A stretch of DNA of 64,000 nucleotides from Lachnospiraceae bacterium (GTDB taxonomy: Bacteria > Bacillota > Clostridia > Lachnospirales > Lachnospiraceae), in the NCBI GenBank assembly GCA_017412055.1, contig JAFQOW010000015.1, positions 77,602 to 141,601 of the forward strand. The letters run 5' to 3'. This document shows, one piece after another, positions 491 to 5,585 of this stretch. Below the pieces are notes generated by a model, which worked only from the letters and a program-made list of their open reading frames with translations, had not been told where the DNA came from and did not search any database. The translations under genes were made by a program, and so were the position numbers. Numbering within the stretch: position 1 is the first letter of the stretch; each line of letters starts with the position of its first letter.

Positions 491-630
491 ATCCTCCTTT
501 TCCTAAAGTCATTATATGATATAAAGTATGACTTTAGGGAATGGCAATTATGCTAAAAGTGTTGATATAAGATGAGAAAAATGGTAAAATAGTTGGAAAA
601 GTGGTGCGTTATAAAAAAGGATTGGTGTAT

Positions 631-798
631 ATGGAAAAGGAAGAGATAAATATTGTTAAAAATTCTAAAGATGATAATAGAATATCGCATAATAATTTAT
701 TGTGGCTAATTTATAGAAGGTTAGCTGAAGAGATAGATATAAGCACATTTGATAATAAACCATTTATTGTAAGATATACGGAGGAAATAGATGAATAA
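631..798 (+). CDS. small hypothetical protein, translationally coupled (ATGA overlap) to the downstream sigma-factor gene
   Basis: The tracked ORF is 601-798; the internal ATG at 631 is the more plausible start. Its stop overlaps the start of the 791 ORF. Confidence 0.4.
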   Translation: MEKEEINIVKNSKDDNRISHNNLLWLIYRRLAEEIDISTFDNKPFIVRYTEEIDE

Positions 799-2818
799 TG
801 AAAAATACGCAAAGCAGGATGAACAGCTTTTCTTTCACATTAGAAATATGCAAGCTGGGAATACGAATAGTTATACAGAAGTATATAATCTTTCATCAAA
901 ATATTTATATAAGATAATTTATGATATTGTTCAGGACTATCATACAACAGAGGATATGCTACAGGAGACATTTTTAAAAATATATAACAATATAGGAAGT
1001 CTTCAAAATCCAGAGGCATACTTTGTGTGGGCAGGCCGAATAGCGACAAATCTTTGTGTAAGATATATACATAAGTATCGCAAGGAAATTCTTAGTACAG
1101 CGACAGAGGATGGCGAAGGCAACGAAGAGTTTATATTTGATACTGTAGCGGATGACAATGAGATGTTTATACCTGAATCTGTGCTTGATAATAAGGAACA
1201 ACAGCGAATGATAGGAGAGGTTATTGATTCATTATCTGTTGAGCAAAAGCTTGCTGTACAGTGCTTTTACTTTGAAGAGATGTCAGTAAAGGAAATTGCT
1301 GCTCTTATGGAGTGTTCTGAGGGTACTATAAAGAGCAGACTCAATTACGCTAGAAAGTCTATAAAGGAATCAGTTTTAAATATAGAAAAAACTCAGGGAA
1401 CAAAGCTTTACAGCTTTGGTGCGATACCTGTATTGCTTTTTGTTTACAAAAGCTTTGCCAGGGCAGCAGTTCCCACAGCAGCGGTTGCAGGCACAGGGGC
1501 AGCACTTGCCGGAGCGTGTGGAACCAGTGGCTCTGTGGTAGGAGCATCGGTTTCTACAGCAGCCACAGCAGGTATATCTGGAAAATTAGTTGCTATCATA
1601 GCATCAGTAGCAATTGGCACAGGAGCAATCGTAGGTGGAACAATTTGGGCAGTTACAGAGGAAAGCAAAAAGGAAGCATATGTAGAAGAGAGTGCCACAA
1701 GTAATCAAGAAACATTGCCTTTGACGGACATAGAGAATATTACGGTGGAAAGTGGAATTGTAGTTGGCGATGAAATTCCAATAGGCGGAAAATATGTTGT
1801 GGCTTCTACTGGAAAAGAATTAAAAGCTGGAGATAAAATGCCAGAAGCACCAGAACAAGATGATTGTTATTATTATGAAGATTATAAATATACATATGAT
1901 TATTTTAATGGTGGCTGGAAAGTTGAGCTAGACAATAAAGAAGAATATAAGCTTCAGACATCTTTTGGAGAAATTATAGAATCTATAGCAGGAGTTAATG
2001 TTGTAGATGTATCAGAACTGTTTTTGGGATGCTCAAATTTAAAAGAAACTCCAAAGCTTCCATCAGGAGTTTTATATATGAATAGAACATTTCAAGAATG
2101 TACTATTCTTGAAAAAGTAACAAATATTCCAGAAGGAGTTGAAAATATAGACGCTGCTTTTAGTTATTGCGAAAATATAAAAGAGATTCCTAGGATACCA
2201 TCTAGTGTAAAAAATATGAATTCTACATTTTATGGATGTAAGAGTTTAATAAAAACTCCAAATATACCAGATGGGGTAATGGAATTGAGAGAAACATTTA
2301 AGAATTGCGAAAGTTTAATAGAAGCGCCAGAATTGCCAGTAGGGATTGTGGATATGTCAGGAACATTTTCTGGGTGTAAGATATTGAAGGAAGCGCCAGA
2401 ATTGCCTAATAGTGTGACAGATTTAAGCCAGACTTTTGAACACTGCACAAGCTTATCAATGCCACCTGATATACCAGAAAATGTAATATATATGTCGGGA
2501 ACATTTGATGAATGTTGGAATTTGGAACAAGCACCACAGATACCGTATGGAGTTACAGATATGAAATTTGTAATTAGAGGTTGCAAATTGATAACTATGG
2601 CACCGGTAATACCTGGTACTGTTGAAGATATGACAGCGGCATTTCAAGATTGTTCCGGACTGACAGGAACAATTATTATTGATGCTAATCCTACATATTA
2701 CGAACAGTGTTTTAGTAGAGTGGATTTTGAAAAGCAAGGTATAGTGCTTGGCGGTTCTTCTAATATGTTAGAAGAACTTAAAGTAACCAGTGAGCTTTAT
2801 GAACCAGATGAAAATTAA
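791..2818 (+). CDS. ECF-type sigma-70 factor (regions 2 and 4) fused to a Gly/Ala-rich transmembrane segment and a C-terminal BspA-type leucine-rich-repeat ectodomain
   Basis: N-terminal region 2 (LQETFLKIYNNIGSL...FVWAGRIATNLCVRYIHKYRK). Region 4 HTH (LSVEQKLAVQCFYFEEMSVKEIAALMECSEGTIKSRLNYARKSIKE). Hydrophobic helix LVAIIASVAIGTGAIVGGTIWAV. About ten ~23-aa repeats of IPxGVxxMxxTFxxCxSLxExPxIP (BspA/LRR_5 type). Confidence 0.75.
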   Translation: MNNEKYAKQDEQLFFHIRNMQAGNTNSYTEVYNLSSKYLYKIIYDIVQDYHTTEDMLQETFLKIYNNIGSLQNPEAYFVWAGRIATNLCVRYIHKYRKEILSTATEDGEGNEEFIFDTVADDNEMFIPESVLDNKEQQRMIGEVIDSLSVEQKLAVQCFYFEEMSVKEIAALMECSEGTIKSRLNYARKSIKESVLNIEKTQGTKLYSFGAIPVLLFVYKSFARAAVPTAAVAGTGAALAGACGTSGSVVGASVSTAATAGISGKLVAIIASVAIGTGAIVGGTIWAVTEESKKEAYVEESATSNQETLPLTDIENITVESGIVVGDEIPIGGKYVVASTGKELKAGDKMPEAPEQDDCYYYEDYKYTYDYFNGGWKVELDNKEEYKLQTSFGEIIESIAGVNVVDVSELFLGCSNLKETPKLPSGVLYMNRTFQECTILEKVTNIPEGVENIDAAFSYCENIKEIPRIPSSVKNMNSTFYGCKSLIKTPNIPDGVMELRETFKNCESLIEAPELPVGIVDMSGTFSGCKILKEAPELPNSVTDLSQTFEHCTSLSMPPDIPENVIYMSGTFDECWNLEQAPQIPYGVTDMKFVIRGCKLITMAPVIPGTVEDMTAAFQDCSGLTGTIIIDANPTYYEQCFSRVDFEKQGIVLGGSSNMLEELKVTSELYEPDEN

Positions 2819-2934: not shown

Positions 2935-3351
2935 ATGGGTTTAGTATTATTATTAATTGCAGCGGTGTTATTTGTACCACCATTTTATCAGAAGAAGTAT
3001 TTTGCAGAGTATAACACAATTACAAAGGGTAAAGCATTTGCATTAGGTTTTGGATATTATACTATATTGATATTTATGGCATTCTTTCCAATTATAATTG
3101 CATCAGAGTATGGAACAGTTGCTACTGTAATTACAACAATTGTTTCACTAGCAGCTACAGGTGGTGTATTATATCTTATCTATAAAAAGAGAATGGCAAA
3201 GTTTGAAGAGGAATATCCAGAGGACAAGCTTTTACCTATAAAAGAAATGGTTGCTTGTATAGGTGCAGTTACATATCCGATAATTTTAGTATTTGGATTT
3301 GTATTTATAATAGTACTTAAAATTTCAGGTGGAAGTAAAAGAAGAGCATAA
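2935..3351 (+). CDS. small integral membrane protein (about 4 TM helices)
   Basis: AGGAGG SD at 2921-2926 then ATG at 2935. The tracked ORF starts upstream at 2884 without an SD. The protein is hydrophobic. Confidence 0.6.
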   Translation: MGLVLLLIAAVLFVPPFYQKKYFAEYNTITKGKAFALGFGYYTILIFMAFFPIIIASEYGTVATVITTIVSLAATGGVLYLIYKKRMAKFEEEYPEDKLLPIKEMVACIGAVTYPIILVFGFVFIIVLKISGGSKRRA

Positions 3352-3378: not shown

Positions 3379-4764
3379 ATGAAAAAAGGATTTGCATTTG
3401 TTTTAACTGCAGTAACCATGATGGCGCTGGCAGGATGTGGTGGCAATGTAGAAAGTAAGGATAATAAAACAACAGTGGAAAGTAGTATGGAGATAACATC
3501 AAATGAAGAAGCATCTTTGAACGTAGATGATAATGAAGAAGCTTCATCTGAAGAGAAAACAACTGTAGAAGCAACAAAAGACATTTCTTCAGAAGAAAAT
3601 AAAACTGTTGCAGAGCAGGAGACAACAACTAAGGTAGTTGTGAGTGAAAATACATCCACAACGAAGAAAACCACGGAAACCACGAAAAAGCCGGCTGAAA
3701 CAACTACAAAGAAGCCTGTAGAAACAACAAAGAAACCAATAGAGACAACAACTAAGAAGCCTATACAAAAACCAACAGAGACAACGACTAAGAAACCGGT
3801 GGAAACTGAGGCTCCTATCGTTACAAAGATAGGTAATGTAGATAATACGCAATATAGTAAGGTAGTAAAGGCATTTGAAAGTATTGTAAAAAAGATGCGT
3901 CAGGATGGCATAGTTAAAAAATCGGATGTATGTGTAACTATGGAAGGTACAACTATCAAGGTTGATATAAATTATGCAGATAAGGATTCTGATTTGGTAT
4001 TAATTTATAATGCAAATAGCAAGGTTTATGAATTAGTTGTGGATTATGGATTTCAATGGGCAGATGGATTTGGAACAAAGATTAATGGTAAAGATTCGGC
4101 GCCGTATAATAGAGAATTGATTAAATCTGTATTAAGCGTAATAACAAGTGAAAAGGATGTTGTTTTTGAACGAATAGACTTAGATTGTTATTCAGCGATG
4201 GGACTTTATGCAGATAAGTGGACACAGATAGCTGATTGTTCTATTATGAGTGGACAATTTAAACTGGATGAATATTTTTCATATTTTATCACTATGGAGG
4301 ATGTGGACAGCAGAGATAAGTCATTTACATTACTTGGAAAGAATAGTGCTGGAAAGACTATTGAATGCATATTAGAATATGATTCAAGTGTAGTTAAATA
4401 TGAAGCAATAGAAAATGGCGTACATTTGGAAGGCAATGATACAAATAATATATTTGGAAATGCAGCAGTTAAGACAGGAAGTAGTTCCTATGAGAATTAC
4501 AAAAAAGGATTAATCGATAGCTGGAAGGCAAAGGGAGATTCTAATCCTATGATTGATGAGATGACATCTCATCGTGTAAATGGATATACATATTATTGGT
4601 TTGAATTATTTTATGAAACTGCGGATGCAAAAGGTGATCCAGAAGTGTTATATGTACAGATAGGTGAAAATGAATATCTTGAGTTGTTTGGATTTGAATC
4701 ATGGATTAGATTTGAAGATTTTGTAAATGGAGCTTTGTTTATTAAGGAAGTAAAAGTTAAATAA
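3379..4764 (+). CDS. lipoprotein with T/K-rich linker repeats (TTKKP x about 7) and a C-terminal globular domain
   Basis: Signal peptide plus lipobox MMALAGC. Repeats ETTTKKPVETTKKPIETTTKKPIQKPTETTTKKPVETE at about nt 3660-3815. GAGGAG SD. Confidence 0.7.
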   Translation: MKKGFAFVLTAVTMMALAGCGGNVESKDNKTTVESSMEITSNEEASLNVDDNEEASSEEKTTVEATKDISSEENKTVAEQETTTKVVVSENTSTTKKTTETTKKPAETTTKKPVETTKKPIETTTKKPIQKPTETTTKKPVETEAPIVTKIGNVDNTQYSKVVKAFESIVKKMRQDGIVKKSDVCVTMEGTTIKVDINYADKDSDLVLIYNANSKVYELVVDYGFQWADGFGTKINGKDSAPYNRELIKSVLSVITSEKDVVFERIDLDCYSAMGLYADKWTQIADCSIMSGQFKLDEYFSYFITMEDVDSRDKSFTLLGKNSAGKTIECILEYDSSVVKYEAIENGVHLEGNDTNNIFGNAAVKTGSSSYENYKKGLIDSWKAKGDSNPMIDEMTSHRVNGYTYYWFELFYETADAKGDPEVLYVQIGENEYLELFGFESWIRFEDFVNGALFIKEVKVK

Positions 4765-4811: not shown

Positions 4812-5585
4812 ATGAGAAAGAATTTATTAGTAAAAACATTATTGATTGGAGCTTTATGTGGTACATTGTGTTTATGTGGATGTGGCGGCGATAAGGAAAA
4901 GGATAGTTCTACAGAATCAGTGAAGCAAACAGATGTACAGAATGATAAGGAAGATAATGGTGGAGAGTCAGATAGTGATTCAGGTGTAACTGAATTTACA
5001 CTTACAGAAGATGGTGGATACATAATACCAGGTAAGGTAATAGAAGAAAGTGAGAATGAATATAGAATATATGACACAGGATTTTTTGAGATTTTAGGTG
5101 GCGAAGGTAACGACTTAAGTATGGGTATGTATGCTAGCCAGTATAAATTTATTAAGGAAAAAGGTGCTGATAAGATAGTTATATCGTGTGCAAATATTAA
5201 AAAAATGGCTGGTTATGATAATTTTTCTTATGAGTTATACATAGTTGGAGATACAAAAATATCCGAGGATGCATTTAGAGATAATGATTCGTTAATTAAA
5301 GTATATATTTATTCAAAAGCAGGAGAAATTTCAAATTATGCTTTTTATAGATGCACGAATTTAAGGGAAGCCGTTTTAGGCTCAGGAGTTGAAGTGATTA
5401 ATAGTCTTAGCTTCGGTGAATGCAAAAGCTTGAAGGATATATCATTTTCAGAGGGATTAAAAGAAATAAAAGGGCATGCATTTGATGGATGTACGTCGTT
5501 ATTGTATGTAACAATACCAGCTTCAGCAAAAGATGGTGTAGCAGAAAATGTATTTCCTAACTATACAGAAATAGAGTACAAATAG
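4812..5585 (+). CDS. lipoprotein with BspA-type leucine-rich repeats
   Basis: Start MRKNLLVKTLLIGALCGTLCLCGCGG (lipobox) with AAGGAG SD. C-terminal repeats (AFxxCxxLxxxxLxxGVxxI...). The tracked ORF begins at 4767. Confidence 0.7.
   Translation: MRKNLLVKTLLIGALCGTLCLCGCGGDKEKDSSTESVKQTDVQNDKEDNGGESDSDSGVTEFTLTEDGGYIIPGKVIEESENEYRIYDTGFFEILGGEGNDLSMGMYASQYKFIKEKGADKIVISCANIKKMAGYDNFSYELYIVGDTKISEDAFRDNDSLIKVYIYSKAGEISNYAFYRCTNLREAVLGSGVEVINSLSFGECKSLKDISFSEGLKEIKGHAFDGCTSLLYVTIPASAKDGVAENVFPNYTEIEYK

Follow-up and report, generated by a model that had tools for sequence, protein, structure and literature searches.

Does one open reading frame (ORF) of a Lachnospiraceae bacterium join a sigma factor to a surface domain across the membrane and, if so, what would hold the sigma factor in check and which genes would it serve? 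The question was raised by a stretch of 64,000 nucleotides (accession: GCA_017412055.1, contig JAFQOW010000015.1, positions 77,602 to 141,601 of the forward strand), here called the window, in which a preliminary description had read sigma-70 regions 2 and 4, a transmembrane (TM) helix and leucine-rich repeats (LRRs) in a single ORF. Our analysis revealed that the ORF between 791 bp and 2818 bp of the window encodes a genuine single-pass membrane protein, with an extracytoplasmic function (ECF)-type sigma factor towards the cytoplasm and a BspA-type LRR domain facing outward.

A sigma factor and an LRR ectodomain in one ORF

The gene and its parts were delimited as follows, the evidence for each being given in brackets.

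791–2818, + strand: complete gene for the 675 amino acid protein, an ECF-type sigma factor tethered to the membrane and ending in an LRR ectodomain (ORF list, hidden Markov models, homologues, fold)
797–1396, + strand: ECF sigma core, consisting of sigma-2 (residues 3–100), a flexible linker (residues 101–128) and sigma-4 (residues 129–202) (hidden Markov models, AlphaFold, Foldseek)
1397–1465, + strand: conserved post-sigma-4 hydrophobic motif GTKLYSFGAIPVLLFVYKSFARA, consensus GTKLYSLxxLPxFxxxFR (family alignment, hydropathy)
1466–1582, + strand: low-complexity cytoplasmic linker rich in Ala, Gly, Thr and Ser, residues 226–264 (sequence, family composition)
1583–1654, + strand: single TM segment KLVAIIASVAIGTGAIVGGTIWAV, residues 265–288, rich in small residues (hydropathy, charge bias)
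1757–2785, + strand: extracytoplasmic domain, residues 323–665, with a beta-rich N-terminal cap followed by ten BspA-type LRRs (AlphaFold, Foldseek, LRR_5)

A Pfam scan of the 675 amino acid protein placed Sigma70_r2 at residues 37–97 (30.8 bits against a cutoff of 24) and Sigma70_r4_2 at residues 139–190 (42.2 bits, cutoff 25.7), and also matched Sigma70_ECF (25.3 bits, cutoff 21.1); it gave no match to Sigma70_r3 or r1, that is, no sigma-3 or sigma-1.1 region. The NCBIfam model of the ECF superfamily, TIGR02937 (sigma70-ECF), scored 85.1 bits against a cutoff of 42.9. The preliminary description had proposed a check of the sigma regions against such models, and Sigma70_r2, Sigma70_r4_2 and TIGR02937 all scored above their cutoffs, which agreed with its reading of regions 2 and 4 in one ORF with the TM segment and the LRRs. 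The best specific models were those of SigW, yet both equivalog cutoffs were missed by far (NF007223 and TIGR02948, 92.7 bits against 209 and 79 bits against 243.1 respectively), so the core was classed as an ECF-type (group 4) sigma factor and not as SigW. In an AlphaFold2 model built with a 116-sequence alignment, the predicted local distance difference test (pLDDT) score was mostly 85–95 in sigma-2 and about 76–84 in sigma-4, while residues 101–128, between these two helical domains, had low values. A Foldseek search of the Protein Data Bank (PDB) matched the core to solved ECF sigma factors, namely SigW (5wuq, E 6.5e-7), AlgU (8z6g), RpoE (1or7), SigK, SigH and SigL, mycobacterial ECF sigma factors being among them.

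The ectodomain was modelled with pLDDT values of 97–98 over residues 323–665, following a disordered stretch at residues 289–322. It matched LRR_5 (PF13306) with 53.4 bits (cutoff 27.7), and ten repeats of exactly 23 residues (F..C..L...P.IP.gV) were counted between residues 411 and 640 (2021 bp–2710 bp), as the earlier estimate of about ten BspA-like repeats had anticipated. Its best Foldseek matches in the PDB were all BspA-type LRR surface proteins (4fs7, E 3.9e-9; TpLRR 6mlx; 4gt6; PcpA), and the alignment with 4fs7 spanned 361 columns, which fits one BspA-type LRR protein. The repeat type itself is very common: a search at E ≤ 1e-3 gave 126,886 representatives, and its top matches were mostly giant repeat proteins of 1,000–6,400 amino acids. 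The ectodomain was therefore regarded as one copy, recruited by this protein, of a repeat module in general use. An exhaustive search with the ectodomain alone for related sensor architectures was uninformative, as the giant repeat proteins dominated it.

The fusion defines a Clostridial family

Among 5.8 billion proteins searched, 544 relatives were found at E ≤ 1e-5. The matches listed included one identical, independently assembled protein (P0001) and about twenty full-length proteins with 50–78 % identity, and nearly all of the 120 listed homologues were 400–1150 amino acids long with N-terminal sigma domains. When one genome was scanned per species, at least 529 stretches proved to encode relatives. 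The loci kept were all Clostridial, with Lachnospiraceae, Oscillospiraceae, Acutalibacteraceae, Faecousia, Enterocloster, Intestinimonas and Anaerosporobacter represented, except for one metagenome-assembled genome labelled Paludibacteraceae. Isolate genomes carrying the fusion were those of Lachnospiraceae bacterium YSB2008, Anaerosporobacter mobilis DSM 15930, Enterocloster lavalensis and Intestinimonas massiliensis.

The comparisons of loci that follow rest on 80 fetched family loci, which are referred to by L-numbers. In nearly all of them the ORF ran on through a hydrophobic segment at about residue 245–390 to a long C-terminal region, and the shared architecture was a sigma domain, the motif GTKLYSxxxLPxF, a low-complexity linker, one TM segment and a variable ectodomain. 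The precomputed Pfam lists of the 120 listed homologues gave LRR_5, DUF285, SBP_bac_8 or nothing for the C-terminal parts. The family is thus large and Clostridial, with a constant sigma module and tether and an exchanged ectodomain. Independently assembled Clostridial proteins keep the fusion, which is thus neither chance nor artefact; a frameshift or assembly error joining two genes around 1380 bp–1700 bp, named in the preliminary description as what would undo its reading, was ruled out by the continuous architecture in many independent assemblies.

Tandem paralogs were present at L003 and L086. At L086 (1152 bp–13,533 bp) two tandem sigma fusions of 593 and 563 amino acids end a cluster encoding a PP2C phosphatase, an FHA protein, a VWA-FHA protein, two Ser/Thr kinases and a transglutaminase-SH3 protein, which hints that some family members are linked with Ser/Thr-kinase signalling. 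A literature search returned no description of the family or of membrane-tethered sigma factors specific to Firmicutes, and a Firmicutes group with a single TM extension is absent from the main text of the ECF classification (PMC7826278).

Topology and the tether

Between sigma-4 and the membrane, the 116-sequence alignment showed that the conserved module extends beyond sigma-4 to GTKLYS(L/F)xxLPxFxxxFR (residues 203–222 of the window protein), in which L206, S208 and P213 were each at least 90 % conserved. Hydropathy analysis revealed a weaker hydrophobic segment at residues 209–227. This stretch had about 11–14 apolar residues with Lys and Arg within, and its best 19-residue Kyte-Doolittle score reached 2.0 in 1 % of 187 members. 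Judged by hydropathy, the motif is too short and too weakly hydrophobic for a standard TM helix; it may be a latch, an anchor or a recognition site.

The sole strong hydrophobic segment was that at residues 265–288, with Kyte-Doolittle scores up to 2.03 and a family-wide composition of 24 % Ala, 22 % Val, 16 % Ile and 15 % Gly. The net charge of the 15 residues on each flank averaged +1.6 before and −1.1 after the segment over the 187 members, and the N-terminal side was the more positive in 156 of these and the less positive in nine. This charge bias, together with the unsuitability of the post-sigma-4 stretch as a TM helix, argues for a single pass with the sigma factor inside and the LRR domain outside, as the preliminary description had placed them. 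A topology with two TM segments, which would leave the LRR domain in the cytoplasm, was rejected on the same grounds: the post-sigma-4 stretch reaches a score of 2.0 or more in only the 1 % of members given above, and the charges fit one TM segment with its N-terminus in and its C-terminus out.

The linker ahead of the TM segment had a family-wide composition of 29 % Ala, 18 % Gly, 13 % Thr and 10 % Ser with little conservation of sequence, and matched no known family or structure. The distance from sigma-4 to the TM segment ranged from 36 to 206 residues across the family and was about 60 residues, mostly of low complexity, in the window protein. The sigma factor and the ectodomain are thus joined by the hydrophobic motif, an Ala/Gly-rich linker of 40–100 residues and the TM segment, which agreed with the Gly/Ala-rich linker and TM helix reported before. 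Linker and TM segment together (1466 bp–1654 bp, and likewise family-wide) form a low-complexity tract rich in Ala, Gly, Val and Thr whose composition is kept and whose sequence and length are not. This tract could matter for partial proteolysis or for reach.

No anti-sigma domain was found between sigma-4 and the TM segment: residues 204–323 gave no Pfam match at E ≤ 1, including none of the FecR N-terminal, zf-HC2 or RskA type, and such domains were also absent from the precomputed Pfam lists of the 120 listed homologues. The protein is therefore described as tethered, rather than as fused to an anti-sigma factor.

A promoter-like motif and the genes behind it

Downstream of the sigma gene, four features were distinguished.

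2865–2893, + strand: family-specific bipartite promoter-like motif AAAACC-N15-GTATCTAT, extended ATAAAACCnAnn-N11-tGTATCTATATAcc (ortholog conservation, position weight matrix)
2935–3351, + strand: gene that comes first behind the motif, for a protein of 138 amino acids with four hydrophobic segments (ORF list, locus comparison)
3379–4764, + strand: 461 amino acid lipoprotein with the lipobox LAGC and no LRR (ORF, Pfam, AlphaFold)
4812–5585, + strand: 257 amino acid lipoprotein with the lipobox LCGC and BspA-type LRR_5 (69.9 bits), the last gene before the hrcA promoter (Pfam)

The family motif is ATAAAACC-N15-GTATCTAT. All orthologs shared ATAAAACC, a 15 nucleotide spacer and GTATCTATATA on the 3′-side of the sigma stop codon, although the flanking nucleotides diverged. 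In the window the motif lies 47 nucleotides past the sigma stop codon and 42 nucleotides ahead of the next start codon, and those copies for which the distance was measured stood 29–50 nucleotides ahead of a start codon. With the strict pattern, 27 copies were found on the sigma strand of the fetched loci and none on the opposite strand; with a position weight matrix at a relaxed threshold the counts were 38 and four. Copies were confined to the loci whose sigma domains are closest to that of the window (L001–L031), the 58 more distant loci having none; at L026, the locus of Lachnospiraceae bacterium YSB2008, the copies were weaker. The promoter search suggested in the preliminary description returned 2865 bp–2893 bp, ahead of 2935 bp, as the sole site in the window, with one exact match and a matrix score of 41.2 against −2.5 for the next best site.

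The geometry of the motif is ECF-like, with an AAC-type −35 element, about 16 nucleotides and a GT-rich −10 element. The SigW consensus is TGAAAC-N16-CGTA, to which the arrangement AAAC-N16-GTAT of the motif is close. The region matched no Rfam family, and a known structured RNA was accordingly discarded as its explanation. Taken together, co-occurrence and geometry predict that the motif is the cognate promoter of the closest sigma clade. In relatives the motif also stood ahead of the operon of small ORF and sigma gene (L001, L009, L010, L019 and L024) or directly before the sigma gene (L012), which implies positive autoregulation there.

The window, L001, L006 and L010 all have the gene for the 138 amino acid protein immediately behind the sigma gene, and L007 has it close by; the protein had no Pfam family above cutoff and no structure match. 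The gene for the 461 amino acid lipoprotein is kept downstream in seven orthologous loci, and the first two downstream genes are conserved behind the sigma gene in the ortholog group. This lipoprotein has a disordered stalk rich in Thr, Lys, Pro and Glu up to about residue 140, followed by a globular alpha/beta domain with pLDDT above 90 (about residues 140–461). It had no Pfam match and no LRR, and its 41 homologs were mostly without Pfam matches; the only lead to a function that its fold gave was a weak PsbP/DcrB/LpqN-like match (E 9e-4, TM-score 0.39). The 257 amino acid lipoprotein was considered as a close paralog of the sigma ectodomain and rejected, the two being similar at the level of the repeats alone (E 3e-5). 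Only the second half of the earlier statement that BspA-type LRR lipoproteins occupy 3379 bp–5585 bp therefore stood, as LRR_5 was present in 4812 bp–5585 bp and absent from 3379 bp–4764 bp. The three genes are separated by 27 and 47 nucleotides, and a terminator scan found no terminator-like site on the + strand between 2818 bp and 5585 bp. From its position, the window motif is predicted to drive all three genes (2935 bp–5585 bp). Control of a set of surface proteins by the sigma factor, as put forward in the preliminary description, gains support from this promoter-shaped family motif, unique in 64 kb, between the sigma stop codon and the neighbouring envelope genes.

Other genes following the motif encoded lipoproteins, a trypsin-like protease (L009), zinc-ribbon proteins and a 52–55 amino acid ORF of the type found at 3 bp–170 bp of the window. 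Zinc-ribbon proteins (CxxC...CPFC near the N-terminus) were first after the motif at L012 (4967 bp–5707 bp) and L021 (3437 bp–3985 bp), and may be a further recurrent member of the regulon. At L009 (= L005), whose sigma-LRR relative is 38 % identical to the window protein, 8108 bp–8906 bp encodes a 246 amino acid Trypsin_2 serine protease with an N-terminal hydrophobic segment, under the motif directly 3′ of the sigma gene. It is a candidate site-1 protease in the L009 lineage.

The upstream region

On the 5′-side of the sigma gene, five features were distinguished.

562–590, + strand: sigma-A promoter with an extended −10 element, TTGATA-17-TGgTAAAAT, driving the small ORF and the sigma gene (promoter scan, orthologs)
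631–798, + strand: 55 amino acid "LW" small protein, MEKEE...NLLWLIYRRLAEE..., co-transcribed with the sigma gene (ORF list, motif search)
194–490, − strand: 98 amino acid XRE/HTH_3 regulator, divergent from the sigma operon (HTH_3 62.2 bits, cutoff 23, Pfam)
496–544, no strand assigned: inverted repeat CCTTTTCCTAAAGTCAT / ATGACTTTAGGGAATGG in the stretch that separates the XRE start codon from the sigma-A promoter, its core arms being CCTAAAGTCAT / ATGACTTTAGG (17 nucleotide arms, 88 % complementary, 15 nucleotides apart)
3–170, + strand: conserved 55 amino acid small ORF (ORF list, homologous ORFs in L006 and L007)

The promoter at 562 bp–590 bp was the best promoter-like site between 1 bp and 6000 bp (10 of 12 matches plus TG), and the same layout was present in L001 (TTGCGG-17-TGtTAAAAT) and L010 (TTGAAA-17-TGgTAAAAT). 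An ECF promoter of the operon's own, upstream of the small ORF, was considered and abandoned, as the promoter scan identified the conserved block as a sigma-A promoter with an extended −10 element. Its position makes ATG 631, giving 55 amino acids, a likelier start of the small ORF than GTG 601.

The LW ORF ends at 798 bp and so overlaps the sigma ATG (791 bp) by 8 nucleotides. Translational coupling of the two, as first described, is not conserved, gaps of up to about 190 nucleotides being found in relatives. The motif [LIVM]LWx[LIVMF][FYW]R, also describable as LWxx[FY]R with L, W and R invariant, was present in ORFs of 43–60 amino acids upstream of the sigma gene at about 11 sequence-distinct loci. 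At four of these (L012, L016, L017 and L019) the sigma fusions are 892–952 amino acids long and match the window protein in the N-terminal module only. A rough estimate from residue frequencies put the number of matches expected by chance at about 0.01, and codon changes at the conserved residues were largely synonymous, which indicates translation of the ORF and selection on it. A profile search found 29 clusters, named at most "hypothetical protein", with no Pfam domain in any of them and no similarity to solved structures. The pattern matched none of the more distant loci among those fetched. As the ORF is absent from L003 and L008 it cannot be essential, and the LW protein was treated as an accessory partner.

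The divergent XRE gene noted previously is present, and is common to the window, L006 and L007, while it is absent at L001, L003, L008 and L010. A divergent HTH_3 gene lay within 600 nucleotides upstream in 10 of the 80 family loci, in several clades. It is thus not a conserved partner, and the idea of an obligate one was set aside as it is missing from several orthologous loci. The inverted repeat at 496 bp–544 bp is a candidate XRE operator or 5′-untranslated region hairpin, and gating of the sigma-A promoter by the XRE regulator is plausible.

The ORF at 3 bp–170 bp converges on the XRE gene and matched no Pfam family and no known family or structure. Its homologues at L006 (5213 bp–5380 bp) and L007 (695 bp–853 bp) follow just after motif copies at 5152 bp and 634 bp respectively, and these ORFs of 52–55 amino acids share the pattern MDTEKV..ISEAKS..ML..D....KQD...IN.VKVI..LL. 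In L006, an ortholog with the XRE gene, the motif copy lies about 60 nucleotides ahead of the 55 amino acid ORF; in the window, the equivalent copy would be situated some 60 nucleotides outside its left edge. Between the convergent ORF and the XRE gene, 3′ of the latter, lies a perfect palindromic hairpin AGGTATATGC-TCCT-GCATATACCT (172 bp–195 bp). Read from 195 bp to 172 bp, it is terminator-like on the minus strand only, so that transcription from an upstream motif copy might run antisense through the XRE gene.

How the sigma factor might be controlled

Helix-destabilising small residues (Gly, Ala and Ser) are typical of the substrates of RseP/RasP-type site-2 proteases, and the TM segment of the family abounds in these three. 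The account towards which we incline, and which we place slightly on the probable side of even, is that the sigma factor is held by its tether, released by proteolysis and then transcribes from the family motif. The sigma-A promoter would yield basal amounts of the LW protein and the sigma factor, with the XRE regulator possibly gating the promoter in the lineage of the window, and the tether would hold the sigma factor at the membrane in an unproductive state. Engagement, pulling or damage of the LRR ectodomain would cause it to be shed, whereupon a RasP/RseP-type site-2 protease would cut within the TM segment and free the sigma domain. The freed sigma factor would take RNA polymerase to ATAAAACC-N15-GTATCTAT, with 2935 bp–5585 bp as its targets in the window; in relatives, where the motif would also drive the operon of LW ORF and sigma gene, positive feedback would result. 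Release by intramembrane proteolysis is suggested by analogy: TM-extended sigma factors are released by proteolysis in the case of IutY and are predicted to be so for ECF48, ECF52 and ECF53 (PMC8999054), and RasP-dependent signalling with modular ectodomains is known in Clostridia from RsgI-SigI (PMC10556640). The roles given here to the LW protein and the XRE regulator are presumptive.

Several observations weigh against this account. With no anti-sigma domain, the tether alone would have to account for inactivity, and no conserved protease gene was found at the family locus, the trypsin-like gene under the motif occurring in L009 only. Within the window the sigma operon has a sigma-A promoter alone, the link from sigma factor to motif is drawn from co-occurrence and geometry, and the LW ORF is missing from the orthologs L003 and L008. 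The ectodomain is a generic LRR repeat module, and nothing marks it as a dedicated sensor. Residues 206–316, the TM segment included, had low AlphaFold confidence, so the model is uninformative on the tether; with a pLDDT of about 50 over the post-sigma-4 motif, it was dropped as a guide to how this motif might dock on the sigma core.

The main rival explanation is that the sigma factor is active while tethered. A flexible Ala/Gly linker would allow it to bind RNA polymerase and DNA at the membrane with no proteolysis, the ectodomain would tune it through oligomerisation or conformation, and the membrane might then be the place where the neighbouring envelope genes are transcribed. ToxR/CadC-type membrane-bound transcription factors act from the membrane. 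The missing anti-sigma domain leaves no obvious inhibitory element, the linker is long and variable (36–206 residues from sigma-4 to the TM segment) with conserved composition, and the locus has no conserved protease gene, all of which would suit such a protein; so would the adjacency of the motif-driven genes, which encode membrane, secreted or small proteins in the window and in most relatives examined. The TM segment, on the other hand, resembles the substrates of intramembrane proteases in its content of Gly (15 %) and Ala (24 %), the literature searched offered no precedent for a membrane-anchored functional sigma factor, and IutY, one characterised TM-fused sigma factor, needs regulated proteolysis (PMC8999054). 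We consider activity at the membrane unlikely, though a serious contender.

A slightly lower rating is given to the possibility that the 55 amino acid LW protein is the true on/off regulator, a minimal soluble anti-sigma factor or co-factor acting on the sigma core or on GTKLYS...LPxF, while the TM segment and LRR domain localise the complex or serve as an adhesin. NepR and CnrY, both minimal anti-sigma factors, were taken as models. Co-transcription with the sigma gene at about 11 sequence-distinct loci, four of them with the long paralogs of 892–952 amino acids, purifying selection at the protein level and the want of any known family are what such a regulator would show, and the post-sigma-4 motif is conserved far beyond the needs of a plain anchor. 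Yet L003 and L008 do without the ORF, its pattern was unmatched in distant loci that keep the sigma-TM-ectodomain design, and no resemblance to known anti-sigma structures was detected.

That the bipartite motif is read by another linked factor, either a different sigma factor or a repressor, appears improbable. The motif is tied to the sigma factor by co-occurrence, and near-identical copies are shared by sigma fusions of differing length, several matching the window protein in the N-terminal module only, which would be unusual if paralogs need insulation. The fixed 15 nucleotide spacer, the strand bias of 27 to 0 and the distance of 29–50 nucleotides to the start codons in the measured instances are nevertheless promoter properties, the AAC-N16-GTAT geometry is near that of SigW-type ECF promoters, the motif does not extend beyond the clade whose sigma domains are most similar, and its region matches no Rfam family. 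The suggestion that a frameshift or an error of assembly created the long ORF by fusing a sigma gene with an LRR surface-protein gene, in favour of which nothing was found, can in practice be dismissed, given 544 database proteins and at least 529 genome stretches, isolates included, and the identical, independent P0001.

Beyond tether-held silencing and proteolytic release in the window protein, a wider and more tentative proposal, which we hold to be less likely than not, is that gut Clostridia possess in this family a large and as yet undescribed class of sigma factors that span the membrane as one protein. Its members would be silenced by the tether and a GTKLYS...LPxF latch, the linker would serve as a processing stop or spacer, the LW protein of 45–60 amino acids would be a new sigma modulator, and exchangeable ectodomains (LRR, DUF285, solute-binding and unknown folds) would couple surface cues to local regulons via a shared promoter type. 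If true, this would be a single-chain counterpart of SigI-RsgI sensor arrays.

Comparison with known systems

C-terminal sigma extensions containing a TM segment are known for IutY/ECF243 and predicted for ECF48, ECF52, ECF53 and ECF263 (PMC8999054, PMC7826278). The window protein resembles IutY of Pseudomonas putida (ECF243), ECF48, ECF52 (SCO4117) and ECF53 in that a single chain runs from an N-terminal ECF core through a TM segment to a C-terminal domain outside the cytoplasm (PMC8999054, PMC5826349). These, too, need no separate anti-sigma gene, and regulated proteolysis has been shown for IutY and proposed for the others. They differ in what lies between sigma-4 and the TM segment, which in their case includes a recognisable anti-sigma domain of the FecR or zinc-finger type, whereas in the present family none was detected and a conserved hydrophobic motif of about 20 residues and an Ala/Gly linker take its place. 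They also occur in Proteobacteria and Actinobacteria rather than Clostridia, and their ectodomains are FecR C-termini or carbohydrate-binding domains, whereas those of the present family are BspA LRRs and many others.

SigI-RsgI of Bacillus and cellulolytic Clostridia is likewise a Firmicute system with several paralogs per genome and a constant cytoplasmic part with swappable ectodomains behind a single TM segment (PMC10556640, PMC10575876). Local targets, positive feedback and RasP-type site-2 release after engagement or pulling of the ectodomain, all of them predicted or proposed in the case of the present family, are further points in common. SigI-RsgI, however, divides sigma factor and sensor between two proteins, includes both an RsgI_N anti-sigma domain and a SEAL domain that cleaves itself, and has a sigma factor of the sigma-I type, whereas the window protein is one chain with an ECF-like core that best matches SigW. 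Neither an RsgI_N nor a SigI model was among the Pfam and NCBIfam matches listed, and no SEA-like fold was among the Foldseek matches listed for the ectodomain, no dedicated SEAL model having been used.

SigW-RsiW of Bacillus subtilis offers the closest solved sigma structure (5wuq), the best NCBIfam match and a consensus that the geometry of the predicted promoter, AAAC-N16-GTAT, resembles. SigW is a free protein of 187 amino acids held by a separate zinc-binding anti-sigma factor, unlike the window protein. With the BspA-type LRR surface proteins (LRR_5/DUF285; BACOVA_04585 4fs7, TpLRR 6mlx, Faecalibacterium prausnitzii 4gt6, PcpA 4cp6) the ectodomain shares fold, repeat type and extracytoplasmic site. 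Those proteins have a signal peptide and are secreted or anchored to lipid or wall, whereas in the window protein the LRR domain forms the C-terminal portion of a type-II membrane protein with a cytoplasmic sigma factor. Five features set the family apart: no anti-sigma domain, the GTKLYS...LPxF motif with the Ala/Gly linker, modular ectodomains, a small partner protein and a Clostridial host.

Other features of the window

The region upstream of hrcA contains a sigma-A promoter at 5625 bp–5653 bp (TTGACA-17-TATTTT with TG), a long palindrome at 5597 bp–5666 bp that gave spurious miRNA matches in Rfam, and, within 5597 bp–5700 bp, a CIRCE-like inverted repeat TTAGCACTC-N9-GAGTGCTAA. Two copies of a direct repeat, AGTTAGGAGGAAGC, lie farther downstream. 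Elsewhere, 28,282 bp–30,717 bp (+ strand) encodes an 811 amino acid protein with TPR_16 and TIR_2, and about 3 kb away 33,600 bp–36,014 bp (+ strand) encodes an 804 amino acid protein with TIR_2 and RCC1 repeats (RCC1_2, 221.7 bits). These two TIR-domain proteins could be of a defence or NADase type.

Significance

ECF sigma factors are the third major mode of signal transduction in bacteria. To our knowledge, the few TM-extended ECF sigma factors known all carry an anti-sigma domain and all come from Proteobacteria and Actinobacteria. The present family is a widespread Clostridial version with no anti-sigma domain, found in abundant gut families (Lachnospiraceae, Oscillospiraceae and Acutalibacteraceae), and it opens to test how nothing more than a tether might control a sigma factor. 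It offers three testable handles, namely the promoter motif, a delimited set of local envelope-protein genes as the predicted regulon and a conserved small partner protein. For synthetic biology in Lachnospiraceae, it would provide a compact and possibly orthogonal pair of sensor and promoter. For the organisms themselves, the finding bears on how gut anaerobes connect LRR and adhesin-type domains at their surface with gene expression.

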